Positions 23,720-64,000 of a stretch of 64,000 nucleotides of DNA are shown here, in pieces. The notes below the pieces were generated by a model. That model saw only the letters and a program-made list of their open reading frames with translations, searched no databases and was not told where the DNA came from. Where the stretch lies: sequence record OK272490.1; one strand, written 5' to 3'. Made by a program: the position numbers and the translations under genes. Each line of letters begins with the position of its first letter. Position 1 is the stretch's first letter. This stretch comes from Escherichia phage JLBYU32.

Positions 23720-23796
23720 CTCTGTTTAGCTCAGCTTGGTAGAGCGTTCCGTTTGGGGCGGTAAGGCCGGAGGTTCAAGTCCTCCAACAGAGACCA
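23720..23796 (+). tRNA. tRNA-Pro (anticodon TGG)
   Basis: hand-folded cloverleaf; 7-bp acceptor, T-arm GGAGG-TTCAAGT-CCTCC, CCA encoded. Confidence 0.7.
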
Positions 23797-23803
23797 AATT
23801 AAT

Positions 23804-23881
23804 GTTCCAGTAGACAAAACGGTAAAGTCACCACTCTTTCAAAGTGGATATTTGAGGGCTCAAATCCCTTCTGGAACGCCA
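23804..23881 (+). tRNA. tRNA-Glu (anticodon TTC), atypical T-loop CTCAAAT
   Basis: perfect acceptor and anticodon stems; loop CTTTCAA. Confidence 0.7.
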
Positions 23882-23883
23882 GT

Positions 23884-23963
23884 TTTGACAGAAGACCAAT
23901 TACAGCAAGTTTAATCTTATTCATCTGACACGAAATCGGACAAAGAAGAGATTTGGTCTGGTC
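23884..23963 (+). repeat. tRNA spacer element CAGAAGACC..ACAGCAA ... TTGGTCTGG (copy 1)
   Basis: long-range inverted repeat AGACC/GGTCT; recurs at least 4 times between tRNAs. Confidence 0.6.
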
Positions 23964-23972
23964 ATTAAGAAT

Positions 23973-24049
23973 TGCGGGTATAGAGAAAGGGCGTCTCACA
24001 TGTCTCATTAGCATGGTATCGGCAGGTTCGACTCCTGCACCCGCCTCCA
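23973..24049 (+). tRNA. tRNA-Met (anticodon CAT)
   Basis: anticodon loop CTCATTA; T-arm GCAGG-TTCGACT-CCTGC; 1-72 mismatch. Confidence 0.65.
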
Positions 24050-24050
24050 A

Positions 24051-24117
24051 TTTTGCAGAAGACCGTATGCAGCAATAAACTACTTTTTGCGGATAAAAGA
24101 AAAAACACGGTCTGGCA
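24051..24117 (+). repeat. tRNA spacer element (copy 2)
   Basis: TTTTGCAGAAGACCGTATGCAGCAA ... CACGGTCTGGC. Confidence 0.6.
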
Positions 24118-24126
24118 ATGTATTAA

Positions 24127-24203
24127 GGTTAGGAAGCACATAAGGTATGTGCGGTCGCCTGTTAAGCGAATGGCACAGGGTTCGAATCCCTGACTAACCG
24201 CCA
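24127..24203 (+). tRNA. tRNA-Asn (anticodon GTT)
   Basis: loop CTGTTAA; T-arm CAGGG-TTCGAAT-CCCTG. Confidence 0.75.
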
Positions 24204-24212
24204 AATTTAAAT

Positions 24213-24300
24213 GTGTCGTTATCCCGTAGATGGTAGCGGTGGGGACTGTAAATCCCTTGTCATTGAGACTCGGTAGGTTCGACTCCTACACGGCACACCA
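24213..24300 (+). tRNA. tRNA-Tyr (anticodon GTA), long variable arm
   Basis: 88 nt; loop CTGTAAA; T-arm GTAGG-TTCGACT-CCTAC. Confidence 0.7.
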
Positions 24301-24306
24301 AATAAA

Positions 24307-24384
24307 GGTTATGTAGTTTAATCTGGTTAAAATACTCCCCTGTCACGGGAGATGATGAGGGTTCAAATCCCTTCGTAACCGCCA
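24307..24384 (+). tRNA. tRNA-Asp (anticodon GTC)
   Basis: anticodon stem CTCCC/GGGAG, loop CTGTCAC. Confidence 0.75.
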
Positions 24385-24442
24385 ATTTTGAGAGGGCTAT
24401 TTAGCCCCTCCCTTAAAGAGTTCTTACGAGTATTCTTTAAAG

Positions 24443-24514
24443 GAGCAGAAGACCAAATACAGCAAATACGTATGATATTTTCAAGCCAATTTAATTTTGA
24501 AAAAATTTAAAACT
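24443..24514 (+). repeat. tRNA spacer element (copy 3)
   Basis: GCAGAAGACCAAATACAGCAA ... AACTTGGTCTGGC. Confidence 0.6.
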
Positions 24515-24520
24515 TGGTCT

Positions 24521-24668
24521 GGCTCAACAATTTTACAGAAGACCGTTTACAGCAAAACTTAAACAATCTATTTCTCGGTAAAGAAAAGGAGAAGGTTCGA
24601 TTCCTTCACTCGACAGATGTCGAGTTGGTGTAATGGTAGCACTTAAGATGATAAACAACGGTCTGGTA
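24521..24668 (+). repeat. tRNA spacer element (copy 4) containing a tRNA-like fragment
   Basis: TTTTACAGAAGACCGTTTACAGCAA ... AACGGTCTGG. Confidence 0.6.
24585..24640 (+). pseudogene. tRNA-like fragment: T-arm then acceptor-like hairpin then D-arm-like segment (degenerate or permuted tRNA?)
   Basis: GAAGG-TTCGATT-CCTTC then ACTCGAC-AGAT-GTCGAGT then TGGTGTAATGGTAGCAC; no canonical cloverleaf in normal order. Confidence 0.25.
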
Positions 24669-24817
24669 ATCATCTTTGCAGTAGCTTATGTGGCTAATTA
24701 TGTCGTCCCATGAGTGCCGATGAATTTCCTTAGCATGATTCTAGATTAGCTTAATAGGAAATGACTCTACAGACCCTTTAGCAAGGTCTGCGTAGGTTAC
24801 TGCAAAGATGATTTAAT

Positions 24818-24892
24818 GGAAGTGTAGCAGAATGGTGATGCGGCAGACTTTTAATCTGACAGGCGATGGGTTCGAATCCCTCCACTTCTACC
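24818..24892 (+). tRNA. tRNA-Lys (anticodon TTT)
   Basis: loop CTTTTAA; paralog of tRNA at 26051 (shared T-arm GATGGGTTCRAWTCCCTCC). Confidence 0.65.
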
Positions 24893-24897
24893 AAAAT

Positions 24898-24974
24898 GGT
24901 TCAGTCGCAGATAAGGTAATGCAGGGGTCTCATAAGCCCTATGAATGTGGGTTCGATTCCCATCTGAACCTCCA
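24898..24974 (+). tRNA. tRNA with anticodon CAT (Met, or Ile via lysidine)
   Basis: loop CTCATAA; perfect acceptor GGTTCAG/CTGAACC. Confidence 0.7.
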
Positions 24975-24976
24975 AT

Positions 24977-25051
24977 TGTGGGTTAGCATAAATGGTAATG
25001 CAAACGGCTGATAACCGTTAGAAGAGGGTTCGATACCCTCACCTACAACCA
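24977..25051 (+). tRNA. tRNA-Ile (anticodon GAT)
   Basis: anticodon stem AACGG/CCGTT, loop CTGATAA. Confidence 0.75.
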
Positions 25052-25066
25052 ATTTCAATAAAGTTG

Positions 25067-25095
25067 TTGACATTTAGATGTGACCACTTTATAGT
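25067..25095 (+). promoter_or_regulatory. sigma70-like promoter TTGACA-17-TATAGT inside tRNA cluster
   Basis: consensus boxes; followed by ~200 nt of structured non-tRNA sequence before next tRNA. Confidence 0.6.
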
Positions 25096-25299
25096 AACCT
25101 TAGTTTTCGTTGCGTAGCGTCTATTTTGCAAATTTAAAATAAATGCAAACGACAATGTTTTTCTGGCAGTAGCTTGATAGGCTAAACACCAGTGAGGTCT
25201 TCCAATCCCTCATCAAAGAATTTGGCGTACTAGCCCACGGTATGATTAATAAAGTGGGCATCTTTAAGGGCTTTCTAAGAGAGTCTTTAAAGATAATTA

Positions 25300-25381
25300 C
25301 GGGGCGTATCTCAGCTGTCTTCTAAACAGCCGTTAACCGAGTAAGTGGAGTATGCGGGTTCGAGTCCTGCCGCCTCGACCA
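25300..25381 (+). tRNA. atypical tRNA-like gene (possible anticodon TCT, Arg); fold uncertain
   Basis: good acceptor and T-arm (GCGGG-TTCGAGT-CCTGC) but non-canonical D region; hairpin GCTGT-CTTCTAA-ACAGC. Confidence 0.35.
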
Positions 25382-25524
25382 ATTTAGTTAGCAGATTACT
25401 TAGACGACCTAAGCGGGTCTTCCTGTAGGGAGGTGGTCTGTATCTCATGTTTTCCAGAACATGTAAATAATCTGAGAAGGGGCTTTACAGTGTTGAGATA
25501 ATACGGTAAGCTTCGAATTATAGT

Positions 25525-25606
25525 ATGGGACGATGTTAAGACTCTAAGGCATGAGCAACGGCTTCCAACACCGTTTCAAAGGGGTTCAACTCCTCCGTCC
25601 CATGCC
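25525..25606 (+). tRNA. atypical tRNA, possibly tRNA-Trp (anticodon CCA) with oversized D region
   Basis: perfect 7-bp acceptor ATGGGAC/GTCCCAT, T-loop TTCAACT; candidate anticodon loop TTCCAAC. Confidence 0.4.
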
Positions 25607-25620
25607 AAAGTCTTATTAGG

Positions 25621-25708
25621 GGTAGGTAGCGGCTAATGGTAGCCAAACTGTCTTGAAAACAGTTGCCACTGTAGAGATACGGTGAGGGTTCGACTCCTTT
25701 ACTTACCG
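25621..25708 (+). tRNA. tRNA-Ser (anticodon TGA), long variable arm
   Basis: 88 nt; anticodon stem ACTGT/ACAGT loop CTTGAAA; CCA not encoded. Confidence 0.7.
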
Positions 25709-25855
25709 CCTAATAAGATTTAAAGCCAAGCTTCATTCGGATGTTGCTTTGGTATACCGCGTGTATTGTTGTACACACAGATAAAACACCTAGTAGGTGT
25801 CACGGAGAAGAGATAATATCAAGCTCTCCAAAGGTTCTAGTCACCGGATTAAACA

Positions 25856-25880
25856 AGACTATGCAAAGACCTTTTTAGGT
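25856..25880 (+). terminator. hairpin + T-tract inside tRNA cluster spacer
   Basis: AAGACC-TTTTT-AGGTCTT followed by TTTTAGAG. Confidence 0.4.
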
Positions 25881-25966
25881 CTTTTTAGAGGGCTTCTAAG
25901 GTTATTAGTCGCTTGTTGTGGAACCTTGTTGCTCAGGTTCTTAGAAGTTCTCTAAAAAGATTTAAT

Positions 25967-26043
25967 GCACCTATAGCCCAACTGGTGGAGGCAGCAGACT
26001 TAGAATCTGCTCAGTGTGAGTTCGAATCTCTCTAGGTGTACCA
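25967..26043 (+). tRNA. tRNA with anticodon TAG (Leu by anticodon) but class I (short variable loop) shape
   Basis: anticodon stem GCAGA/TCTGC loop CTTAGAA; 77 nt; discriminator A. Confidence 0.6.
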
Positions 26044-26050
26044 AATTAAT

Positions 26051-26126
26051 GCAGGTGTAGCAAAATGGTTATGCGGCTGACTCTTAATCAGTAAGACGAT
26101 GGGTTCAATTCCCTCCACCTGTACCA
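26051..26126 (+). tRNA. tRNA-Lys (anticodon CTT)
   Basis: loop CTCTTAA; paralog of tRNA-Lys(TTT) at 24818. Confidence 0.65.
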
Positions 26127-26132
26127 AACATT

Positions 26133-26208
26133 GGGGTCATAGTTTATATGGTTAAAATTCGAGTTTTGCAAACTTGGGAACTGAGTTCAATTCTCAGTGA
26201 CTCCACCA
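26133..26208 (+). tRNA. tRNA-Ala (anticodon TGC)
   Basis: G3:U70 wobble pair in acceptor stem; loop TTTGCAA; T-arm CTGAG-TTCAATT-CTCAG. Confidence 0.8.
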
Positions 26209-26214
26209 ATTAGT

Positions 26215-26289
26215 GCATCCATAGTTTAAACGGGAAAATTACAGTCTTCCAAACTGAGGTTGAGGGTTCGATTCCCTCTGGATGCTCCA
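26215..26289 (+). tRNA. tRNA-Gly (anticodon TCC)
   Basis: perfect acceptor GCATCCA/TGGATGC; loop CTTCCAA. Confidence 0.75.
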
Positions 26290-26296
26290 AATTAAT

Positions 26297-26372
26297 GCTC
26301 CTATCGTATAATTGGCTATTACGGTTGCCTTGTAAGCAACTTATCAGGGTTCGAATCCTTGTGGGAGCACCA
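26297..26372 (+). tRNA. tRNA-Thr (anticodon TGT)
   Basis: anticodon stem GTTGC/GCAAC loop CTTGTAA. Confidence 0.8.
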
Positions 26373-26467
26373 ATTCAGAGGTCAAGTGAAAGACCGCTTT
26401 GAGTCAACTGAAGACCGTAACAAATTCCACGGAGTTGAGTTAGCGGCACAACTCCAGACCTCTTTCA

Positions 26468-26543
26468 TACTCGCTTAGTTTATATGGTAAAACATCACCC
26501 TTACAAGATGAAGAAAAAGGTTCAAGTCCTTTAGTGAGTACCA
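26468..26543 (+). tRNA. tRNA-Val (anticodon TAC)
   Basis: T-arm AAAGG-TTCAAGT-CCTTT; loop CTTACAA. Confidence 0.65.
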
Positions 26544-26544
26544 T

Positions 26545-26622
26545 GTTCCAGTATCCCAATTGGCAGAGGATGCAAGCTCAAACCTTGTACTAGTGACGGT
26601 TCGAATCCGTCTTGGAACACCA
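26545..26622 (+). tRNA. tRNA with anticodon CAA (Leu by anticodon), class I shape
   Basis: T-arm GACGG-TTCGAAT-CCGTC; loop CTCAAAC; discriminator A. Confidence 0.6.
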
Positions 26623-26627
26623 ATTTT

Positions 26628-26703
26628 GCAGGATTAGTTCAAATGGAAAGAGCAACAGTCTACGAAGCTGTTAATAGGGGTTCGAATCCCTTATCCTGCG
26701 CCA
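26628..26703 (+). tRNA. tRNA-Arg (anticodon ACG)
   Basis: perfect acceptor GCAGGAT/ATCCTGC; loop CTACGAA. Confidence 0.8.
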
Positions 26704-26722
26704 ATTTAAAGAGGCTATTTAG

Positions 26723-27280
26723 ATGAGATATTTGAAGTATGCTTCATGGATTTTCTTAGCTTTGTTAGAGCCATTTGCAGCAATCTTAGCAGTTATCTTA
26801 GCACCTTTTGTAGTTCCATTCTACAGTGAGAAGAAAGGACACTTACCTTTCGGGTTCAGATGGATGGAGACATATGACAACCCAATTGATGGTGATGAAG
26901 GTCACGTTAAAAGATGGGCTAATATTAGATGGATTGGTAAACTAGGTGTCTACATGCAAAGAGTCGGATGGCTCTGGAGAAACAAAGCTTATAACTTCTC
27001 TTACCATGTATTAGGAAGAGATGTAAAAGATGTTACTAAGTGGAAAGGTAATATCAACGTAAGTTCTGACCCCGAAGATAATCAGACAGGTTATCTCCTA
27101 ATGTGGAACAGTAATGCTTGGGGATTATTCGCTTTTATCCCATCAATTAAAATCTTTGGTAAACAATTTTACTGGAGAATTTATATTGGATGGAAACTAA
27201 AAAGTGTTGTCCCAGAAGAAAGAGCATTCTCAAGGGAAAGAGTTATGTTGGCATTCTTTATTCATCCACTGAGAAAGTAA
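26723..27280 (+). CDS. hypothetical membrane-anchored, Trp-rich protein embedded in tRNA cluster
   Basis: AAAGAGG RBS 8 nt upstream of ATG; N-terminal hydrophobic segment. Confidence 0.55.
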   Translation: MRYLKYASWIFLALLEPFAAILAVILAPFVVPFYSEKKGHLPFGFRWMETYDNPIDGDEGHVKRWANIRWIGKLGVYMQRVGWLWRNKAYNFSYHVLGRDVKDVTKWKGNINVSSDPEDNQTGYLLMWNSNAWGLFAFIPSIKIFGKQFYWRIYIGWKLKSVVPEERAFSRERVMLAFFIHPLRK

Positions 27281-27288
27281 AGATTTAA

Positions 27289-27364
27289 AGGGGATTAGTT
27301 TACAAGGTTAAAACCTCGGTCTTTGAAATCGAAGAAGTTGGTTCAATTCCAACATCCCCCGCCA
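27289..27364 (+). tRNA. tRNA-Gln (anticodon TTG)
   Basis: T-arm GTTGG-TTCAATT-CCAAC; loop CTTTGAA. Confidence 0.7.
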
Positions 27365-27366
27365 AT

Positions 27367-27445
27367 GCTCCATTACTCCAATTGGCAGAGAGGCCAGACT
27401 TAAAATCTGTGTTATGTATCGGTTCGAATCCGATATGGAGTACCA
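27367..27445 (+). tRNA. tRNA with anticodon TAA (Leu by anticodon), class I-like shape
   Basis: T-arm ATCGG-TTCGAAT-CCGAT; loop CTTAAAA; discriminator A. Confidence 0.6.
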
Positions 27446-27450
27446 AATTT

Positions 27451-27526
27451 AGCGGTATAGCATAACTGGCAATGCAGCAGCCTCTGAAGCTGTCCTATTA
27501 AGGTTCAAATCCTTATGCCGCTGCCA
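27451..27526 (+). tRNA. tRNA-Gln (anticodon CTG)
   Basis: T-arm TAAGG-TTCAAAT-CCTTA; loop CTCTGAA. Confidence 0.65.
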
Positions 27527-27557
27527 CTTCTAAGGATTCTTGCGAGAGTCCTTAAAT

Positions 27558-27633
27558 GTGGCCTTATCATAAATGGTAATGACCCATGCTGTGAACATGG
27601 TCTATACGGGTTCAAATCCCGTAGGTCACCCCA
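27558..27633 (+). tRNA. tRNA-His (anticodon GTG)
   Basis: anticodon stem CCATG/CATGG loop CTGTGAA; discriminator C. Confidence 0.75.
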
Positions 27634-27639
27634 ATTTAT

Positions 27640-27715
27640 AGTCCAAGTAGCTTATATGGTTAAAGCGCGTGTCTGAAAAACATGAGAAGAGGGTTCGAAT
27701 CCCACTGGACTACCA
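27640..27715 (+). tRNA. tRNA-Phe (anticodon GAA)
   Basis: loop CTGAAAA; T-loop TTCGAAT; acceptor pairing slightly ambiguous. Confidence 0.65.
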
Positions 27716-27731
27716 ATTTCAAAGGTGCTTA

Positions 27732-28466
27732 ATGAAAGAGATGACAGAACAAGGTAAGGAGATTTTTAATCTCTTAAAAACCGGTAGAGGGTTTTCTAAT
27801 CCCCTTATTACTGGTGCAGCAGTTCTCGGTGGAACCGTAGCTGCCTCTACATCACTTGTAAGTTCTATTAGCTCTGTAACAGACCCTACAATGAAGGAGA
27901 AACTTGTTGCTGCTGGACTTACAACAGTCCTTCTAAACAGCTTTACAACAAGCCTTACAAGCACTACAGCGACTACTAAGACCTTAACAGACTATGGTCA
28001 AAAGTCTATTGATGAGTTTTCATCACGTATGCAGGTAGCAAAGGGGTATTCCAATGTTATGGGTGCAGCAGGGGAACAAGTTGGCTGTACACCGTTTAGT
28101 GGTATTATGGGCGTTGCTACAGAATATGGTCAAAAAGCTATTGACACAATTAACAGTGCACTAGATGACGTTAATGATGTATTAAGTGACTTACAAGATG
28201 CTATTGATAAGGGTCTTGATACTGTTTCTGATTTAGCTAATCAGGCTGTTAGCAAGATTAATGAAGGTATCTCGAAGATTACAGCTTATGCAGATGAAGT
28301 TGTGCAGATGATTGAAGAAGAAGCTGCCCTTATTGCAGAGTACCTTAAAACGAATATCAATGGGTTCTTAGCAGGTATCTTACCAGACTGGTTTGATGAT
28401 GCCTGTAAAACTGGTGTAATTGATACTATTGCAACACCAGAAATGAAGAGCGCATTACAGAAGTAA
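27732..28466 (+). CDS. hypothetical Ser/Thr/Ala-rich protein embedded in tRNA cluster
   Basis: start moved to ATG 27732 (track start 27669 is an alternative start inside tRNA-Phe); ends 1 nt before tRNA-Ser. Confidence 0.5.
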   Translation: MKEMTEQGKEIFNLLKTGRGFSNPLITGAAVLGGTVAASTSLVSSISSVTDPTMKEKLVAAGLTTVLLNSFTTSLTSTTATTKTLTDYGQKSIDEFSSRMQVAKGYSNVMGAAGEQVGCTPFSGIMGVATEYGQKAIDTINSALDDVNDVLSDLQDAIDKGLDTVSDLANQAVSKINEGISKITAYADEVVQMIEEEAALIAEYLKTNINGFLAGILPDWFDDACKTGVIDTIATPEMKSALQK

Positions 28467-28467
28467 T

Positions 28468-28560
28468 GGAAGATTAACCCTAAAAGGTAAGGGAGCAGTT
28501 TGCTAAACTGCCAGTAGCTGAGAAATCGGTGTACCAGTTCAAGTCTGGTATCTTCCTCCA
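28468..28560 (+). tRNA. tRNA-Ser (anticodon GCT), long variable arm
   Basis: 93 nt; perfect acceptor GGAAGAT/ATCTTCC; anticodon stem GCAGT/ACTGC loop TTGCTAA. Confidence 0.75.
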
Positions 28561-28564
28561 ATTT

Positions 28565-28640
28565 GAATCCGTGACAGAAATGGCTATGTGCCTGTCTGCA
28601 AAACAGGTTTATAAGGGTTCGAGTCCCTTCGGATTCTCCA
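28565..28640 (+). tRNA. tRNA-Cys (anticodon GCA)
   Basis: perfect acceptor GAATCCG/CGGATTC; anticodon stem CCTGT/ACAGG loop CTGCAAA. Confidence 0.8.

Positions 28641-40349: not shown

Positions 40350-40350
<1 letters not shown>
40111..40350 (+). CDS. tail assembly chaperone frameshift extension (GT-like)
   Basis: in -1 frame relative to upstream chaperone, no intervening stop from slip site. Confidence 0.55.
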
Positions 40351-48369
<8,019 letters not shown>

Positions 48370-48371
48370 TA

Positions 48372-49520
48372 ATGGCAGTAGGTGAAATTCAAATTAGTGC
48401 CTTGCCTCAAGCAGCCTTACCAATCGACCTTAGTGATATCTTCCATCTTAAACAGGGTATCGAGGATAAGAGATGTACTCTTGAGCAACTACTTGCTCCA
48501 CATTCAAGCCTAAGAAATAACCCTCATGGTGTTACTAAGACACAAATTGGTCTAGACAATGTTATTAATGCTCTTCAGTTAGTTGCTGCAAATAACTTAT
48601 CAGATATTGTTAATGTAGCTGAGGCAAGAGCAAATCTACAGATTATGTCTTCAGAAGAGGTTAATAGCCTTATTCAACAGCATATTAATGACAAGAGCAA
48701 CCCACACAATACAACTAAGGCACAGGTTGGTTTAAGTAATGTCCAGAACTGGACAACATCTAACCTTTATAATGAAGATGCAGATAAGTATGCTACAGCA
48801 AGAGCAGTAAATAACTTGTACAAGGCTGTTCAGGCTTCTTATCCAGTAGGTACTATCCATCTCTCTATGAATCCTGCAAACCCCTCTACATATTTAATTT
48901 GTGGAGGTACTTGGGAGTTAGTTTCAAAAGGAAGAGCACTTGTAGGTTATGATAGTGATTCTAGGCCAGTTGGTTCAACGTTTGGTTCACAGACTACTGC
49001 ACTGACGGTTAATAACATCCCTGCACATACCCACTCAGTGTATGTCACTGGTGGTGGTCACACTCATGGTGCAACGGCCTCTATCGGTGCTTTTGATTAT
49101 GGCACTAAAGGGACTACAACGTTTGACTACGGAACCAAGACCGTATCTACTTACGACTATGGCAACAGAACAACAAGTGCTGCTGGCTTAACACAAACAA
49201 CATTCATTAACCGTGGCTATGCTGATGGTGGTTGGAGAGGTTTATCGGTTGAGGGGGCAAGCTATGACCCAAGAGCTACGCTGACAACAGCTAACAACCA
49301 CACTCACTCTGTAGCAATTGGTGCGCATAATCATACGGTTGGTATTGGTGCTCACAGCCATACTGTTGCAATTGGTTCCCACAACCACTCAGCAACAGTA
49401 ACAGTAACCGGAGCAGGTGAGCATTCACACTCTGGCACAACTGGCACAACTGGTTCTGGTCAAGCATTTAGTGTTGAACAGCCATCCTTCGTATTGTATG
49501 TATGGCAGAGAACAGCTTAA
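48372..49520 (+). CDS. tail fiber protein with C-terminal His-rich HxH repeat domain
   Basis: repeated HTHS / HNHT / HSHT motifs; C-terminal ...GSGQAFSVEQPSFVLYVWQRTA shared with next fiber. Confidence 0.65.
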   Translation: MAVGEIQISALPQAALPIDLSDIFHLKQGIEDKRCTLEQLLAPHSSLRNNPHGVTKTQIGLDNVINALQLVAANNLSDIVNVAEARANLQIMSSEEVNSLIQQHINDKSNPHNTTKAQVGLSNVQNWTTSNLYNEDADKYATARAVNNLYKAVQASYPVGTIHLSMNPANPSTYLICGGTWELVSKGRALVGYDSDSRPVGSTFGSQTTALTVNNIPAHTHSVYVTGGGHTHGATASIGAFDYGTKGTTTFDYGTKTVSTYDYGNRTTSAAGLTQTTFINRGYADGGWRGLSVEGASYDPRATLTTANNHTHSVAIGAHNHTVGIGAHSHTVAIGSHNHSATVTVTGAGEHSHSGTTGTTGSGQAFSVEQPSFVLYVWQRTA

Positions 49521-49530
49521 TTTCTTTACA

Positions 49531-49552
49531 GGGGCTTTATAGCCCCTTTTAA
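49531..49552 (+). terminator. hairpin GGGGCT-TTAT-AGCCCC + T-tract
   Basis: same stem sequence as cassette type A hairpin; followed by TTTT. Confidence 0.55.
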
Positions 49553-49566
49553 GAGGAAAATTTATA

Positions 49567-51918
49567 ATGGCAGATTACAAGTTGAGTGAATTAAACTCAA
49601 TTGATACAATTCGTTCAGACGACCTTCTTCATGTCAGGGTTAAAAAGAGACCTGAAATGCTGGGTGATGAAGACCGTCGAATGACCTATCAAGACTTCTT
49701 AGCATCTTTTAAACTAGAAAGATTTGTCCAGATTGCTGGTAGCACTATGACGGGTGACTTAGGAATTGTTAAGTTACTTTATGGTGGTAAGGTAGTCTTT
49801 GACCCAACAGGCTCTTCTGAGATTAATATTGGGGATGTTTTAAAGACTTTTAAAATTAACGCAAATGGCCTTAAACTAACTATCGCAGATGCTTCAAGGT
49901 CGGCAACTGTTTATCATACTCTTAATAAGCCAAGTCCTAATGAACTTGGGATGAGAACTAATGAAGAGAATGATGCAAGATATGCAAGACTTGCTGTAAA
50001 TAACACCTTTAGGGCCACTCAAAATATTCTATCTGATAATGAAACTATTATTGTTAAGAATGTTACACAAGGGATGCCGCTGTATATTCGCGGTCGAGAT
50101 GCAGATGGTTCTAACAGGTGGTATCTAGGCAATGATAACAAAGGTACAGACAATCTTGTTTTAAAAAATGTTAAATCTGGTGCATATGTAGCTATTTTGG
50201 ATAGCTTAATCACTGTGAACAAATCTATCCAGATTACTGGTCAAGTTCAGCCTTCTGACTTCTCTAACTTAGATGCTAGATACTTTACTCAGACAGCAGC
50301 TAATCAGAGATTTGCACAGTTAGTTGCGAATAACACTTTTAGAGGTATTAACAATTTTGTAGGAGAGTTCAATATCACCAGAGATAACGCTGTGCTAGTC
50401 GTTAAGAATGCCACTGCTGCAACTGGACTGTACTTGCTGGGGCAGAAGGCTGATGGGACAAACAAGTTCTACTTAGGGACTGATGACTCTGATTCTGTAG
50501 TCAACCTACATAACTACACCACGAGTACAACTATCTCTTTGTCAAATGTGATTACCACTACTAAGACTGTGAAAATCACTGGTCAAGTACAACCTTCAGA
50601 TTGGACTAACATTGACTCTCGTTATGTTCTTATTGGTTCATACGCAAATCTTGCTAAGAAGAATGAAGCTAACACATTCACTTTACAGCAGAATATTCAA
50701 TCTGATGGTGAAGCATTAAGAATCTACAGCAAGGCTCAGAATAATTCTTCTTACATTGTTGGTAAGAATACTGATAACACAAATAAGTGGTTTATTGGTT
50801 GTGGTACTAATGGTTCTGGTACGGCATCATTCCATAACTACTTGACTGGTGCAAGACTCGATTTAGCTGACGAAATTCTTCTGTCTAAATCTCTACAGAT
50901 TACTGGACAGGTAAAACCTTCTGATTGGTCTAACTTAGATGCTAGATACTTCACTCAGTCAGCAGCTAATCAGAGATTCATGGTTGCAGGTTCTACAGGA
51001 GAAGCTACAGAGCATAATGCAGATGGTGTGGCATGGAACGCTAAAACAGGCTTATATAATGTAACCTCAACAAATGCTGATTACACAGCACTTGTGTTTC
51101 AAATGTATCAGGGGGTTAACTCTTCTACTGCCTGTGCGCAATTAAAGTTCCAGTATAAGAACGGTGGGATGTGGTACAGAACATCTGTAGATAGTAAAGG
51201 CTTTGAAGCTAAGTGGTCTAAGATTTACACAGAAGCACAGAAGCCAACCCCTTCAGAGCTTGGTGCATACACTAAAGCAGAAACTGACCAGAAGATTGCA
51301 CAGGCAGTAAGTGACTCTACAGACCTTAATAAAATCTATCCAGTAGGTATTGTGACGTGGTTTAACAGTAATGTTAACCCTAATACAGCACTGCCTGGTC
51401 TAACTTGGACGTATCTGAACAATGGTGTTGGTAGAACTATCAGAATTGCAGCAGCAAACGGTTCAGATGTTGCTACAACTGGTGGTTCAGACTCTGTGAC
51501 GTTAGCTGTTGGTAACTTACCTTCACACACTCACAGTTTTTCTGCGACTACCTCATCGTTTGACTACGGAACAAAAAACACTAACACGACTGGTGCTCAC
51601 ACACACTCTGTAAGTGGTTCTACTTCATCTGCTGGTAACCACAACCACGCTATCTCGTGGATTGGTCAGAACTCTACACACTATTCTGGTGGTGGTGGTG
51701 GTAAAATCGGTACAGGTCCGGGTTACACTGATGCTGCTGGTGCGCACACCCACACAATCTCTGGTACTGCTGCTTCTGCTGGTAACCATGCTCACAGTGT
51801 TGGTATTGGTGCTCACAGTCATACTGTTAGTGGTAACACTGGTGGTACAGGTTCTGGTTCAGCATTTAGTGTAACTAACCAGTTCTACAAGTTAATGGCT
51901 TGGGTGAGAACTGCTTAA
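49567..51918 (+). CDS. long tail fiber protein with internal repeats and C-terminal His-rich HxH domain
   Basis: three copies of ~[20 protein letters not shown](T/S)AANQRF; C-terminal HTHS/HNHA/HSHT repeats and ...[22 protein letters not shown]. Confidence 0.7.
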
Positions 51919-51997
51919 TCCCTTGTTGACTGATTGTTAAGATGGTGTTAATATTCTTTATGGGTATTCTCACCATCTTGGCTGATGAGGTGATTAA

Positions 51998-52192
51998 ATG
52001 CCTACAATCCTAGCAATTCTTCTAAAAAATCTAGGTAGTTTCTTCTGGAAACTCATTTTATCCCTTCTAAGTGAATACATGATTGAGAAAGTGTTCTTTA
52101 GGCTTGCAAGATACCTTGCGAGTAAGACAGACACACCTATTGATGATGAGTTCGTAGATAACTTAGAAAAAGCTTTTAAGGGGGAGAAATAA
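51998..52192 (+). CDS. hypothetical small membrane protein (holin candidate)
   Basis: 64 aa, hydrophobic N-terminal segment ILAILLKNLGSFFWKLILSLL. Confidence 0.3.
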   Translation: MPTILAILLKNLGSFFWKLILSLLSEYMIEKVFFRLARYLASKTDTPIDDEFVDNLEKAFKGEK

Positions 52193-52564
52193 ATGAAGTG
52201 GCTGGAGGAAGCTTTTAAAAATAATATTGGTGCAATTGTAGTTGGTATTTTTAGTGTTATTGGGATGTATACCACCATGCAAGTTTCGGATGGTAAACAA
52301 GAAGTGTCTATCACAACAAAGTTACAGCAGCTAGATAATTATTCCAAAAGTAATTATTCAGCTATTCGTGATTTACAGTCTGATATGAGGCTGCTTCAGC
52401 TAGGGATGGAGAACCAGAAAGTCCAGTTAGAGAATGTTAAGGGAGAGAACGCAAAACTTACTAAGACTCTTGATAAATTTTCTGATAGTGTGAACAATCT
52501 GGCTCAATCAGTATCAGCCCTCCAAGCTATTACTGAAAAGAACACAAAGAATACTGAAAAATAA
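52193..52564 (+). CDS. hypothetical membrane-anchored coiled-coil protein
   Basis: N-terminal TM (IGAIVVGIFSVIGMY) then heptad-rich region. Confidence 0.4.
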   Translation: MKWLEEAFKNNIGAIVVGIFSVIGMYTTMQVSDGKQEVSITTKLQQLDNYSKSNYSAIRDLQSDMRLLQLGMENQKVQLENVKGENAKLTKTLDKFSDSVNNLAQSVSALQAITEKNTKNTEK

Positions 52565-52571
52565 AATTTTA

Positions 52572-52600
52572 AGGCTCCTTTTTACGGGAGCCTTTTTTGT
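52572..52600. terminator. bidirectional rho-independent terminator between convergent blocks
   Basis: AAGGCTCC..GGGAGCCTT hairpin flanked by A-run and T-run. Confidence 0.7.
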
Positions 52601-52602
52601 TT

Positions 52603-53502
52603 CTACTTACCTACTGACAAAGGTGCTTCAATCTTTCCTGCATGTTGGTAGTTACTAATTCCACCAATAAAGTCACTTGCAGTAAGATGTTTCAGGTCAC
52701 TTAAAGTATTAAGTTGTAGACCAATCTCAAAAGTTGGTGCATGGAACTCTTCATTGTTCATCAGTTCATAAACCTGCTTCATATGATTCTGATAAATCTG
52801 AGTATCTCCAAAGACACCTATCAAGTACCGTGGAGTGTATCCAGTCATCTTACAAAGAACTTCCAGAATAAAACCATAAGATGCAATATTAAACGGAAGT
52901 CCTAAAAAGGTGTCTACTGAACGCTGATACCACTGTAAGTCAACTTCACCCTCGTTAGTAATATAAATCTGAAACAGAACATGGCAAGGTGCTAGAGCCA
53001 TTGAGTTTGCTGCAATATCTGCTGCATTCCAAGCATTCACAAGCATGTAACGGTCTGTGATATCACCCTTCATCTTCGTTACTAAGGTCTCTAGCTGGTC
53101 TACAACACAACCGTTATGACCTTCAAAGTTTCTCCACTGAACTCCGTAGATTCTTCCACCTGCATCTTCTAACCAATCTTGTTCAGAAGAATAGTTAGAG
53201 CTTAACCATCGTTTAAAATCATCTGACCAGATAGTCCAACGTTCTCCGTCATTTTCACCCCAAGTACGGTAACGGAGTTCACCCAGTTTATTCTCACCAT
53301 TCAGGAACCATAAAGCTTCCCCAATAACTTGCCGCGTAAACACCTGTTTAGAGGTTAAGAGTGGGAAACCAGTTCTCATATCAAAACGAAACTGTGGTGG
53401 AGCAAATGCAGAGATAACATCTCCAGTTCGTGTAGTACGCAGTTCGCCAACAGATAAAACATGGTTCAGGATATTTTTGTAACTTGTATCTGCTTGTGAC
53501 AT
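52603..53502 (-). CDS. thyA: thymidylate synthase
   Basis: catalytic cysteine motif ALAPCH and overall ThyA-like sequence; 299 aa. Confidence 0.85.
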   Translation of the reverse strand: MSQADTSYKNILNHVLSVGELRTTRTGDVISAFAPPQFRFDMRTGFPLLTSKQVFTRQVIGEALWFLNGENKLGELRYRTWGENDGERWTIWSDDFKRWLSSNYSSEQDWLEDAGGRIYGVQWRNFEGHNGCVVDQLETLVTKMKGDITDRYMLVNAWNAADIAANSMALAPCHVLFQIYITNEGEVDLQWYQRSVDTFLGLPFNIASYGFILEVLCKMTGYTPRYLIGVFGDTQIYQNHMKQVYELMNNEEFHAPTFEIGLQLNTLSDLKHLTASDFIGGISNYQHAGKIEAPLSVGK

Positions 53503-60540: not shown

Positions 60541-60601
60541 AAGCCCTCCTATACAAGATGTAGTATAAGGTACTCTTCCCTGAGCACCTTGTCAATACTA
60601 A

Positions 60602-61165
60602 TTAGTGTACCTCATACCAGCTTTTACCAACCTTACCAGTACCTGTAACAAGTGTTTCTTTCTTAAGACCTAAGTTCTTAGAAGCTTGTCCATAATACCA
60701 GTCAGTAACTGCTTTCACTTCTGCCGTCATACTTTCTGGACATTCCCAACTCGTCTCGTCGTGATAGGAGCACAATAAACGAGCACCTATAGCTGGCTTG
60801 CGACCGTTCAACTTCATCAAACCTTCGTCAATCATACGACGGCAAGCAAGGTTAATTGCTTCATTCTGAACCTGCGCCTCACTACCCATAAGTGTGTAAT
60901 TCAATAACTTATGTGGAGATTTACACCATAACCACGCTCCAGCGACCTGAATGTACCCACCCTTAGCGATTGCAGCACTCTTGCCGAAAACCTCTTCTAA
61001 TGCCTTCTTAGTGGCCTTAAAATCGGCTTCTAAGTTATCAAGTAGCTTCTTAATCTTTGGTAGACGCATATAGTAGGTCTGCTTAGTCAATGCACCTTCT
61101 TCTGTAGAAGCTGCCTTAATGGTTTTGGCAAACTTCTCATCACCTGCACCGAACAATACATCTGG
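60602..61165 (-). CDS. DNA polymerase (family A), C-terminal segment (second half of motif B and motif C)
   Basis: VLFGAGDEKFAKTI matches T7-like motif B second half; YHDE motif C; in-frame stop at 61166-61168 bounds the segment. Confidence 0.7.
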   Translation of the reverse strand, partial: PDVLFGAGDEKFAKTIKAASTEEGALTKQTYYMRLPKIKKLLDNLEADFKATKKALEEVFGKSAAIAKGGYIQVAGAWLWCKSPHKLLNYTLMGSEAQVQNEAINLACRRMIDEGLMKLNGRKPAIGARLLCSYHDETSWECPESMTAEVKAVTDWYYGQASKNLGLKKETLVTGTGKVGKSWYEVH

Positions 61166-61965
61166 TCAATACACTCGCAAGGTGTACCAGTTCTCTTATG
61201 AACTTCTCCGCATTTCTACGGAGTGTCGGACTATATCACGTAGTAGTAATACTACCGTTGCACTTGGGAATGGTCATTAGCTTACCACCCTACTCTACTC
61301 AGTTCATACATTAAGTATGCTTTTCGATAGTCTCTGAACGTTTCTCTGTTAGGAACTCTAAAATACTATTGTTTACTAAGGTATGCAATTGCTCTCTGCA
61401 TATTATCTACACTGTCTGAGAACAAGCCAAGACCTCTGTTACAGTTGTGGCACAACATCCCTCTCACCTTACCTGTTTTGTGGTCATGGTCAACAACAAG
61501 TTTAGCTTTATGTCTTGAGCCATTCATGATGAAACCTTCACCGCCACAGATTTGGCACTTATGGCCACATTTACTTAACAACTCTTCAACCTCTTCTCTT
61601 TCTAGGCCGTAAGTCCTTAAGTAGTAGTTCTTTACCCTTCCCTTTTCTCCACATGCAGAACTGCAATATGTCTGTCTTGCTGTTCTAGGTGTGAATTGGT
61701 TATTGCAGCTTGGACATATCTTTTCTATGACACGGTTTGCTGCTCTCCTGTCTACTTCAAGAACGCAGTTTCTGCAACGTTTTTGATTGTACTGGTATGG
61801 CTTAAACTCTTCGCCACATCTGGAACAAACTCTCTCTTTATAACCTACCATTGTCTCTCTCCCATTTCTACTATAGGAGTCCTAACAGAGACTTCGCTGC
61901 TGATTACCATATCTTTTAAGACTTAGGCTTCCAGCAATTCACAACGTTTTACATGCGCCACTGAC
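61160..61965 (-). mobile_element. intervening sequence in DNA polymerase gene (putative group I intron; boundaries approximate) carrying HNH endonuclease
   Basis: splits motif B between ...AKNGIYA and VLFGAGDEK...; contains HNH ORF on same strand. Confidence 0.55.
61366..61851 (-). CDS. HNH homing endonuclease
   Basis: multiple CxxC pairs and DHDHKTGKVRGMLCHNCNRGLG HNH motif. Confidence 0.8.
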   Translation of the reverse strand: MVGYKERVCSRCGEEFKPYQYNQKRCRNCVLEVDRRAANRVIEKICPSCNNQFTPRTARQTYCSSACGEKGRVKNYYLRTYGLEREEVEELLSKCGHKCQICGGEGFIMNGSRHKAKLVVDHDHKTGKVRGMLCHNCNRGLGLFSDSVDNMQRAIAYLSKQ

Positions 61966-64000
61966 GCATAGATACCATTCTTAGCCTTCTTACGGCCTTT
62001 AGTTATCTCGTGAAGAAGTTCCTCATCCTGTGTCTCTCTACAACGGATAATATCTTCTTCTTTGTTCAATGCAAAATAGATACTGTTAAGTGTATGCGCA
62101 TCAGTACCTGTGTAGACTTCATACAAATCATTATCAGCATCGTAACGACAATATTTATCAGCCTCTGGATTTAGGTACTTATCAAGATGCTTGCAGTAGT
62201 ATCGTCCATCATCCTGTTTAGTGAACTCTACAAACTCTTTACCTTCAGTTACCGCTTTGGTGAAGTCTTTATCACCCATAAAGTTACACAGTAAAACAAG
62301 CTGTGCAGAGTTCTGGTCAACTGAAACGATATTAGTCCCTTCCTCGCAAATCCACACCTCCCTCATAGGCGCTCCATAGACAGCAGCACCAGACGGCACG
62401 TTTACAATACCATATTGTGTCATACGCCCAGTTGAAGTACCAAACACCATTGCACCAGCACTAAGGCGACCATCTGGACGAATCTGGTTCAGCCAACCTT
62501 TCTCGTCATCCTTTGAGTTCTCAATAGTTCTGCGTCGGTGCATCAAAGTATAGTACTTAGCAATCTTCTGTCCAAGTTCACCTTCAATCGTATCATAAGA
62601 TGATTCAGTAAGTTTTGGTGAAGTACGGATTAAGCAAGGCTCAAGCAAATCTGTGTACTTCTTCACAGACCAGTTATGCTCAATGTACTGGACACCTTCA
62701 TGCTCAACATAGCTCAAACCACACCGCTCAACCATTTCCTGCCATTTAGGATGCTTGGTAATCATCTTTTTGTTGTCTTTGAAACGACAAACCTTAACAG
62801 GACGACCATCTGAGTCTTTCTTGTAGTTCCAGTCATCTGGAATCCAACCAACTGATTTCAAGTAGTCTTTAACAACTGCTACCTGAGTCATACGAGAAAC
62901 TTCAAACTCAATTGGTGTATATGGTGCATCAATCAATCCTGTGTAGCGACTTGACTCAAGTTCAAAGTGGTTAACAACGTGGCTGTTATAGTACTTCACA
63001 GTTTTGACTGTTTTTACTGGCTTCCAGTCTTTGCATTTCTTACCAATCTTTGCATTCAACTCATTGCAAATTGCACGAGCATCCTTCATTGCTACAAAGC
63101 CTTCCTTGTACTCTTCACCAGTTACAGAGTTGGTTGGTGTATAGCAATTTCTCTTTTCAATGTTAAAAATCTTTGTAGTTGGCTTACCAAATGGTTTGAT
63201 TTCATAAGTCTGCATCTCACCATTACGCACCTGCTGACGATACTTCGTCTTAGGGTACTTGGTAATTCTTTTCAGTCCATCTGCATGACCAAATGCTTCA
63301 ACATACTCATTCCAAGCTTTTGCAAACTCTTCTCCAGTGACTTTACCTTTGGTCTTAATAGTTGGAGGTAGATGTGGTTCAACCTCTGAAGCAAGCTCAT
63401 TAGTCAACTTGTCAAGTTCCTTTACATGGAACTCCATAAGCTCTTTATCAGCTTTCCAGCCATTAATAGCTTGTTGACTCATCCAGAAAGACGTCTCTTT
63501 AGCTCGCATGTAGGTTTCATAAGTGTCTATGCCACACTTCTTAAGCTTGAGATACTCGTTATCAAGTGCCCGTTTAGTTTTGGCGTTAATACGGATATCT
63601 TCTACAACACGAGTGAAGATTTCTGCATTCCACACACCCCAATGTTCAATCTCTGGTTTACGAACACCAACACGAGCACCCCATGCAGCCAAACCATGAG
63701 CACCTTTATAACCCTTTGGAGTTGGTCTATCCATCCACTGAACACGAGACTGGATAAGAGAATCCTGAAAGAAATTACTCCACGGTTTACACTTTGGATT
63801 ATCAAAGTTCCATAAATCAGGTGCAATGTGATTGAAAACCCACCAGTCATAACCGAGACCATTATGGATGCAAAGACGTTTTGCCTTTAACGCAAACTCA
63901 ATGCCTTCACGTAAGCCACCCTTAATGTACTTGGTATACTTGTGACCGAGGATAGGCTCATCTGTAAAGACCCATACAGGCGGCTCTTCATCGTCAGATT
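61923..64000 (-). CDS. DNA polymerase (family A), N-terminal segment; partial, runs off window end
   Basis: DQNSAQL (motif A-like) and ...RKKAKNGIYA (first half of motif B); frame open from 63734 to 64000. Confidence 0.7.
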   Translation of the reverse strand, partial: SDDEEPPVWVFTDEPILGHKYTKYIKGGLREGIEFALKAKRLCIHNGLGYDWWVFNHIAPDLWNFDNPKCKPWSNFFQDSLIQSRVQWMDRPTPKGYKGAHGLAAWGARVGVRKPEIEHWGVWNAEIFTRVVEDIRINAKTKRALDNEYLKLKKCGIDTYETYMRAKETSFWMSQQAINGWKADKELMEFHVKELDKLTNELASEVEPHLPPTIKTKGKVTGEEFAKAWNEYVEAFGHADGLKRITKYPKTKYRQQVRNGEMQTYEIKPFGKPTTKIFNIEKRNCYTPTNSVTGEEYKEGFVAMKDARAICNELNAKIGKKCKDWKPVKTVKTVKYYNSHVVNHFELESSRYTGLIDAPYTPIEFEVSRMTQVAVVKDYLKSVGWIPDDWNYKKDSDGRPVKVCRFKDNKKMITKHPKWQEMVERCGLSYVEHEGVQYIEHNWSVKKYTDLLEPCLIRTSPKLTESSYDTIEGELGQKIAKYYTLMHRRRTIENSKDDEKGWLNQIRPDGRLSAGAMVFGTSTGRMTQYGIVNVPSGAAVYGAPMREVWICEEGTNIVSVDQNSAQLVLLCNFMGDKDFTKAVTEGKEFVEFTKQDDGRYYCKHLDKYLNPEADKYCRYDADNDLYEVYTGTDAHTLNSIYFALNKEEDIIRCRETQDEELLHEITKGRKKAKNGIYASVAHVKRCELLEA

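Follow-up and report, generated by a model that had tools for sequence, protein, structure and literature searches.

Close relatives of the two genes treated here are the tail fibre genes of phage JohannRWettstein (Bas63), for which a study by cryo-electron microscopy and AlphaFold 3 (PMC12609058, Sci Adv, November 2025) describes a short fibre, gp26, of 430 Å and a long fibre, gp27, of 630 Å. According to the sections of that paper devoted to the fibres, both carry a collar, a needle with HxH (di-histidine) motifs and a head like those of T4 gp37, the chain doubles back on itself, and there are 7 + 6 di-histidine motifs; five T4 gp34-like beta-helix repeats with helical linkers occur in the long fibre, which sits on a platform, gp25. 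The same sections report that fibres of this type are highly variable in their tips and, unexpectedly, in beta-helix repeats 2-5, and they offer three options for the variability of the shaft, which is left unexplained. Here we analyse two adjoining genes at positions 48372-51918 of a 64,000-nucleotide stretch of Escherichia phage JLBYU32 (sequence record OK272490.1), the whole of which we call the window. We conclude with high confidence that the two genes encode the short and the long baseplate fibre of a Felixounavirus, both ending in a T4 gp37-type tip. We also show that the domains of the long-fibre shaft behave as discrete cassettes, recombining at conserved linkers and moving between positions 1 and 3.

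A second point of reference is the long tail fibre of phage T4. In T4 gp37, with domain boundaries used here as in PMC6957217, the collar D10 is formed by residues 811-881 and 1010-1026, and the needle D11 (882-1009) is inserted into that collar. The receptor-binding tip lies at residues 932-959, seven iron ions along the needle are held by histidines, and H929 and H931 are essential (PMC6957217). The related ounavirus Sf14 has two fibres, with a gp37-like distal tip on the longer one (gp53) and no fibre chaperone (PMC11821841). Close relatives of the present phage, Bas63 among them, have the lipopolysaccharide (LPS) core as their only receptor (PMC8594841), unlike T4, which uses OmpC or LPS.

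The window belongs to the genus Felixounavirus (Felix O1-like myophages): 238 phage records match it by megablast, the closest at 94-96% nucleotide identity. Both fibre open reading frames (ORFs) were confirmed on the plus strand, at 48372-49520 (382 amino acids) and 49567-51918 (783 amino acids). The short fibre differs from Bas63 gp26 at 2 of 382 residues (99.5% identity). The long fibre matches the tail fibre protein of Escherichia phage JLBYU32 at 100% identity and Bas63 gp27 at 69.7%. Genus, gene order and fibre lengths (382 and 784 amino acids in Bas63) are alike in the two phages, whereas 200 of the 238 long-fibre differences fall in four variable shaft domains, and the window's long fibre reads NHNH at a site where Bas63 has HHNH. 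Baseplate wedge genes and a 100-amino-acid gene lie on the 5' side of the fibre genes, and a 64-amino-acid ORF and a holin gene on the 3' side; the order wedge proteins, 100-residue platform, 382-residue fibre, ~783-residue fibre, small ORF and holin is kept in the relatives bumzen, Bas63, SUSP2, FO1a and ECOH1. The genes concerned are as follows, the role of the first as a platform being that described for gp25 in the fibre sections of the Bas63 paper (PMC12609058).

48067..48369, plus strand: 100-amino-acid protein, Bas63 gp25 homologue, given for context (phrog_4141, E 4e-62; same position as bas63_0025)
48372..49520, plus strand: short tail fibre gene, 382 amino acids, Bas63 gp26 homologue (phrog_2097 tail fibre, E 5e-128)
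49567..51918, plus strand: long tail fibre gene, 783 amino acids, Bas63 gp27 homologue (phrog_4277 over its full length, 1315 bits)

The short fibre contains seven HxH motifs (residues 219, 230, 310, 319, 328, 337 and 351) and the long fibre six (654, 678, 692, 727, 741 and 750), whereas in 5000 shuffles of each protein the count averaged 1.0 and 0.4 and reached 5 and 4 at most. Fourteen of the 20 histidines of the short fibre lie within its HxH motifs, all of them in residues 219-353; across 57 homologues H219, H221, H230, H232, H337 and H339 are invariant, and H310/H312 are nearly so. Residues 157-382 of the short fibre and 591-783 of the long fibre are 31% identical (E 1e-14), a common module of ~195-230 amino acids that is predicted to consist of a collar with an inserted HxH needle hairpin. 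When the PDB was searched with phmmer, the T4 gp37 tip (2XGF) was matched by residues 146-352 of the short fibre (E 2.3e-14) and 652-762 of the long fibre (E 3.1e-15), and the short fibre also matched the C-terminal collar domain of T4 gp10. In BLASTP comparisons of the tip regions, T4 gp37 was 39% identical to the long fibre (E 2e-24) and 32% identical to the short fibre (E 1e-19), and the two fibres were 31% identical to each other (E 3e-15).

A three-way alignment places the motifs of these tips in register. The long-fibre motifs 654/678/692/727/741/750 correspond to T4 883/915/929/966/980/989, with T4 998 lacking a partner, and the short-fibre motifs 219/310/319/328/337 correspond to T4 883/966/980/989/998, with 230 and 351 as extras of the short fibre. 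Homology with T4 gp37 runs from the collar through the two needle strands and the head to the C-terminal strand. It includes FDYGTK on the ascending strand (three in the short fibre, one each in the long fibre and T4 gp37), GIGAHxHTV on the descending strand, where the two fibres repeat a 9-residue G(A/S)HxHTVxI unit, and a long-fibre head of 28 amino acids, as in T4. The identity is nevertheless only 32-39%, and each fibre here is a single protein, unlike the four-protein long fibre of T4. The C-terminal 17-22 residues of the fibres align with the T4 gp37 C-terminus, inside the collar segment 1010-1026; this tail would be a strand returning to the collar and not the receptor-binding end. From the alignment, the receptor-binding head would lie midway along the tip sequence, at the apex of the hairpin and inside the HxH region.

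An earlier note on this DNA, made from its letters, had pointed to HxH repeats at both fibre ends and to a likeness with T4 gp37. Both observations hold, with 7 and 6 motifs where ~1 and 0.4 are expected and with both tips homologous to the iron-binding 2XGF tip, motif on motif. Its suggestion of a common fold agrees with the fibre sections of the Bas63 paper (PMC12609058), in which collar, needle and head appear in both fibres, the short one differing from ours at those two residues of 382. The note went too far in calling the C-terminal tails near-identical, as 12 of 22 residues are the same in the two fibres (the short-fibre tail is GSGQAFSVEQPSFVLYVWQRTA), and its shared module of the last ~120 residues was too short.

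The predicted parts of the short fibre are listed here, with the role of the N-terminal domain taken from the description of Bas63 in the fibre sections of PMC12609058.

48372..48839, plus strand: residues 1-156, baseplate-binding N-terminus followed by a helical shaft, conserved in relatives
48840..48971, plus strand: residues 157-200, N-terminal part of the collar (compare T4 gp37 D10 and the gp10 C-terminal domain; Pfam Gp10_C, E 1.4e-17)
48972..49178, plus strand: residues 201-269, ascending needle strand with HxH 219/230 and three FDYGTK-type repeats, aligned with T4 gp37 882-931
49179..49286, plus strand: residues ~270-305, head domain at the hairpin apex, aligned with the T4 gp37 tip 932-959
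49287..49451, plus strand: residues 306-360, descending needle strand with HxH 310/319/328/337/351, aligned with T4 gp37 960-1009
49452..49517, plus strand: residues 361-382, conserved C-terminal strand returning to the collar, aligned with T4 gp37 1010-1026

Conservation among 40 homologues follows these parts. Over residues 1-156, which are helical in the AlphaFold2 (AF2) model, mean identity is 71-97% per 10-residue bin; in the head (270-305) it falls to 0.14-0.29 with many insertions and deletions (indels), the hot spot of variability being residues 261-310 (14-29% identity, many indels); and in the C-terminal strand GSGQAFSVEQPSFVLYVWQRTA it rises again to 0.77-0.93. The hypervariable head is presumed to be the receptor-contacting part. 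The collar (157-200), which matches 2XGF, 2FKK and 5HX2, is the best-predicted part of the model, with a predicted local distance difference test score (pLDDT) of 73-86, and the C-terminal strand has a pLDDT of 84. The descending strand includes a tandem 9-residue (27-nucleotide) GAHxHTVxI repeat, seen in the DNA as direct repeats spaced by 27 nucleotides at 49292-49394.

In the long fibre the tip is preceded by a shaft of repeated domains. The earlier note had described three copies of a ~35-residue repeat in this protein, and ITGQV(Q/K)PSD does occur three times (residues 223, 337 and 445). What is repeated, however, is a domain of ~110 amino acids (pairwise identity 36-47%, E 1e-20 to 5e-32), of which the reported repeat is the linker. 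The full 27-residue motif is common to linker copies 1 and 3 only, which form a 92-nucleotide direct repeat of 87% identity; copy 2 departs from them after ~17 residues. Pfam gp37_trimer (PF20744) matches three stretches of the protein (E 2.1e-57), and the AF2 model gives each shaft unit 6-7 strands at a pLDDT of 70-90, with helices in the linkers. When this model was compared with the PDB by Foldseek, the matches were the Mu fibre (8JU3) and T4 gp34 (4UXG, 5NXH), at E 3e-7 to 2e-5 and a probability of 1.0; the template modelling scores are low (0.1-0.28), as the domains of this monomer model are oriented arbitrarily. The shaft is made of beta-rich, T4 gp34-like domains joined by conserved helical linkers, and resembles both T4 gp34 and Mu S (8JU3) by fold; in contrast to Mu, the fibre gene is not followed by one for a fibre chaperone. 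The predicted parts of the long fibre are the following.

49567..49971, plus strand: residues 1-135, N-terminal baseplate-binding region and first beta domain (identity 0.85-1.00 among 121 homologues)
49984..50232, plus strand: residues 140-222, shaft repeat unit 1, beta-rich, variable cassette (Pfam gp37_trimer, best stretch 160-248)
50233..50331, plus strand: residues 223-255, conserved linker 1 (identity 0.86-0.94; copy 1 of the repeat of the earlier note)
50332..50574, plus strand: residues 256-336, shaft repeat unit 2, variable cassette (43% identity to unit 1; 16 allele types)
50575..50682, plus strand: residues 337-372, linker 2, divergent after its first ~17 residues (left breakpoint of the bumzen block at ~residue 351)
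50683..50898, plus strand: residues 373-444, shaft repeat unit 3, variable cassette (47% identity to unit 1; 19 allele types)
50899..50970, plus strand: residues 445-468, conserved linker 3 (right breakpoint of the bumzen block at ~residue 447)
50971..51231, plus strand: residues 469-555, fifth beta domain, variable with indels (Pfam gp37_C, E 1.6e-18; 23 allele types)
51322..51525, plus strand: residues 586-653, N-terminal part of the collar, aligned with the short-fibre and T4 gp37 collars
51526..51648, plus strand: residues 654-694, ascending needle strand with HxH 654/678/692 and one FDYGTK, aligned with T4 gp37 883/915/929
51649..51732, plus strand: residues 695-722, head domain at the hairpin apex, aligned with the T4 gp37 tip 932-959 (both 28 residues)
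51733..51852, plus strand: residues 723-762, descending needle strand with HxH 727/741/750, aligned with T4 gp37 966/980/989
51853..51915, plus strand: residues 763-783, conserved C-terminal strand returning to the collar, aligned with the T4 gp37 C-terminus

Among the 121 homologues, the strongest variation of the long fibre lies in the three shaft units and in the domain that follows them (469-555). Unit 1 comes in 14 allele types with bimodal identity (AF2 pLDDT 74-80), and the fifth domain resembles the phage Mu fibre protein S (8JU3) both in sequence (E 1.8e-17 over residues 469-577) and in fold (E 3e-7). The collar, whose Pfam Gp10_C match at 588-695 (E 1.9e-4) is below the Pfam cut-off, is nearly constant (identity 0.97-0.99), as is the C-terminal strand (0.98-1.00). 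Within the tip, the most variable part is the head, with an identity of 0.73-0.79 per 15-residue bin and seven allele types.

The variation of the fibre genes takes the form of whole-block replacement. When nucleotide identity to six relatives is followed in a sliding window, it drops abruptly from 96-100% to 40-60%. Against bumzen there is one such block, at about residues 351-447 around shaft unit 3, where identity is 40-60%, with 93-100% everywhere else, and its edges fall in the conserved ITGQVxPSDW linkers on either side of the unit. Against Felix O1a it is the short fibre that diverges, over about residues 201-360, that is the whole needle and head, with conserved collar sequence on both sides. 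SUSP2, which belongs to another genus (Suspvirus) and has a background identity of 70-80%, carries one cassette at 87-90%. Each variable shaft block of the long fibre (units 1-3 and the fifth domain) has 14-23 allele types with bimodal identities, few pairs of unit 3 being 40-70% identical, and the tip apex has 7; together the blocks occur in 77 combinations in 121 proteins, with four-gamete configurations between blocks.

Cassettes also move between positions of the shaft. In 20 of the 121 proteins the unit at position 3 is at least 60% identical to the position-1 unit of another phage; position 2 is not involved. The best pair across positions is 91.6% identical over 308 nucleotides, a value as high as that of the collinear flanks, and the fact that positions 1 and 3 have the same downstream linker fits cassette movement between them. 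The strongest of these pairs involve metagenome contigs (the best, a contig of 3.4 kilobases), and in comparisons restricted to 23 named isolates the cross-position identity is at most 51%. Misassembly of metagenomes is nevertheless an unlikely source of the signal, since the 20 proteins include that of the isolate vB_EcoM_BL and those of several contigs of 79-90 kilobases. A diversity-generating retroelement was considered for the variable regions and rejected: the direct repeats within 48372-51918 are linkers and HxH units only, none of them template-like, and the annotation of the first 45 kilobases of the close relative bumzen contains no reverse transcriptase.

Exchange at conserved sequences has precedents in fibre genes. 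In the modular evolution of T-even gp37/gp38, as here, conserved motifs flank variable segments and are the crossover points at which receptor-binding segments are exchanged between phages (PMC3157838). The present case differs in that whole shaft domains of the long fibre are exchanged, and exchanged also between positions 1 and 3. Crossing over at such motifs in the fibre and adhesin genes of T-even phages was reportedly also described in earlier 'His box' papers.

The first of the options in the fibre sections of the Bas63 paper would account for the shaft differently, as mutational drift in structurally tolerant spacers, with neither recombination nor function involved. It has some attraction, for the fold and length of the shaft domains are conserved despite their sequence variation, as those sections also note (PMC12609058). 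Moreover, phages isolated on one K-12 host and sharing the same short-fibre tip have very different shaft cassettes, so that no single cassette set is needed on K-12. However, drift alone cannot yield bimodal identities, sharp breakpoints in the linkers, reassortment into so many combinations or four-gamete configurations, nor is it compatible with a SUSP2 cassette that stands well above its background or with the close pair formed by a position-3 and a position-1 unit. Taken together, the bimodal alleles, linker breakpoints, reassortment and cross-position transfer argue against pure drift, which we consider improbable, although drift may be the source from which ancient shaft alleles first diverged. 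Cassette recombination itself is observed; what the cassettes are for is a separate matter. That the shaft domains are combinatorial cassettes with a function, and no inert spacers, kept for side-on binding of host glycans or for evading a defence that senses fibres, matches the second and third options in those sections of the Bas63 paper, and is a speculative reading that we regard as possible but doubtful.

The earlier note had also proposed that the tips are swappable. Between phages this is borne out by the replaced needle and head block of the short fibre, but the two tips of this phage have not been swapped with each other, in keeping with their low mutual identity. A recent duplication within the phage, or an exchange of tips between its two fibre genes, might be suspected from the adjoining position and shared architecture of the genes and from a 49-nucleotide stretch of the needle that is 82% identical between them. 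Yet the two tips, at 31%, are less alike than T4 gp37 is to either (32% and 39%), and since they are closer to T4 gp37 than to each other we reject a recent intragenomic duplication or swap as very unlikely. Both genes, each with its own tip type, also keep their order in the Ounavirinae compared, namely bumzen, Bas63, TH10, FO1a and ECOH1 (Felixounavirus) and in SUSP2 (Suspvirus), and no mosaic block in the sliding nucleotide identity connects the short-fibre with the long-fibre gene. Least credible of all is that the HxH runs are compositional low complexity devoid of a specific metal-binding structure: the region is indeed repetitive and rich in glycine, serine, threonine and histidine, has low confidence in the AF2 monomers and matches Pfam Phage_fiber only below threshold (E 0.004), but the histidines are confined to the HxH arrangement, several of those in the short-fibre motifs are invariant among the 57 homologues, and the register of the motifs matches the iron-coordinating motifs of T4 gp37, in which H929/H931 are essential (PMC6957217).

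Several observations weigh against the assignment of T4 gp37-type tips with metal-binding needles and receptor-binding heads. The AF2 monomers leave needle and head unresolved, with a pLDDT below 50 at residues 265-313 of the short fibre and of ~30 across the long-fibre tip. The short-fibre model has a mean pLDDT of 58.6 (57-sequence alignment) and is confident only in the collar and C-terminal strand; the long-fibre model averages 53.3 (54 sequences) and is useful for the shaft domains only. The short-fibre model had no significant Foldseek match among PDB structures, the best being the T4 gp10 collar at E 0.1. Poor tip models are to be expected, since a monomer cannot represent an intertwined trimer. 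According to the fibre sections of the Bas63 paper, the density of the fibres there is without resolved side chains, so the metal sites are unseen in that phage too (PMC12609058). The short fibre lacks the two HxH motifs that are nearest the head in T4 and has two extra ones near the collar, and its needle must therefore differ in detail. Folding of T4 gp37 requires the chaperone gp38. No T4 gp38 homologue was found in the window, where the best tblastn match was one of 34 amino acids at E 3.2, and folding must therefore differ from that of T4 gp37; the 64-amino-acid ORF 3' of the long fibre has no Pfam match, and the next gene is the holin gene. Dependence on a gp38-type chaperone is an accessory trait of T4 and no defining feature of the fold. 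A last point concerns hosts. The earlier note had proposed to compare the tips across host ranges, and short-fibre alleles do follow the host of isolation: the window's needle and head allele (at least 96.6% identity) is found in 35 phage records, for nearly all of which the isolation host was a K-12-type laboratory strain, and phages of E. coli O157:H7 (wV8 group) carry an allele 54% identical to it. This association is compatible with a part in host recognition; shared ancestry and sampling confound it, however, since a few studies supplied most of the K-12 isolates.

On the assignment to T4 gp37-type tips, the structure of the T4 tip and the Bas63 work together suggest how the fibres would be built. 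Both are most likely homotrimers, in which a collar of the T4 gp10/gp12 fold family would carry an inserted hairpin. The chain would run out along the needle to a small head at the far end and then back, to end as the C-terminal strand inside the collar; because it would double back in each of three subunits, the needle of the trimer would be six-stranded. Level by level, three chains contributing one HxH motif apiece could place six histidines round one metal ion (iron in T4 gp37), giving up to seven metal sites in the short fibre and six in the long, rivets of a kind for a thin, glycine-rich needle. We infer metal binding by the HxH needles from the motif register with T4. The variable head at the hairpin apex should contact the receptor. 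Diversity arises by recombination at conserved sequences, namely the collar flanks in the short fibre and the ITGQVxPSDW linkers in the long fibre.

The 46-nucleotide gap that separates the short and long fibre genes contains, at 49531-49551, a GC-rich hairpin (AGGGGC-TTTATA-GCCCCT) followed by TTTT, which the terminator scan did not call because of its four T only. By attenuated read-through, or by stabilising the upstream transcript, it might alter the ratio of the two fibres. In a scan of 47900-52700, promoter-like sites (10, against 12.5 in shuffled sequence) and terminator-like sites (4, against 2.8) were at or near expectation. The sole clear site was a bidirectional terminator-like hairpin at 52571-52594, after the holin gene, with a 9-base-pair stem and T-runs on both strands, where the rightward late genes (structural, holin) meet the leftward thymidylate synthase and DHFR genes.

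Elsewhere in the window, comparison with bumzen brought out several further differences. Inside the tape-measure gene (ORF 40350-42578), 41947-42225 has no megablast match to bumzen and is flanked by sequence of ~97% identity, a local mosaic patch. The family-A DNA polymerase gene (60605-63998, minus strand) is split by an insertion of ~805 nucleotides at 61160-61964, in comparison with the intact 906-amino-acid gene of bumzen; polymerase residues 44-721 are encoded by 63998-61965 (98% identity) and residues 722-906 by 61159-60605 in another frame (82.7%). A 161-amino-acid ORF (61366-61851) inside the insertion encodes an Endonuclease VII domain (E 8e-20), and the ends of the insertion give sub-threshold group I intron matches of 24.3 and 15.4 bits (cut-off 50). 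The insertion probably represents a group I intron that carries a homing endonuclease, and a co-conversion tract may account for the lower identity of the exon downstream of it. Two homing-type endonuclease genes of bumzen are absent from the window, at 25384/25385 and 60595-60605: an HNH gene inside the tRNA cluster and a free-standing gene downstream of the polymerase gene. The set of mobile endonucleases thus varies among close relatives. The cluster itself (23720-28640, plus strand) holds 25 tRNA genes including tRNA-His(GTG), with a few small ORFs between them and an order identical to that of bumzen; such a cluster is typical of Felixounavirus genomes.

The tip architecture of both fibres is already known, having been published in 2025 for the near-identical phage Bas63; since the short fibre of that phage differs at only two residues, the architecture is no new biology here. 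Cassette recombination is not described in the relevant sections of the Bas63 paper, and it is the one addition of this analysis: the map of recombining cassettes and their movement across positions is a modest one, and it narrows the options of the Bas63 authors for the variability of the shaft. Phages of the Felix O1 type are used in Salmonella typing and are considered for therapy. Their fibres determine which bacteria such a phage attacks, and the replaceable units, that is the needle and head block of the short fibre and each shaft cassette of the long fibre, give exact cut points for host-range engineering.

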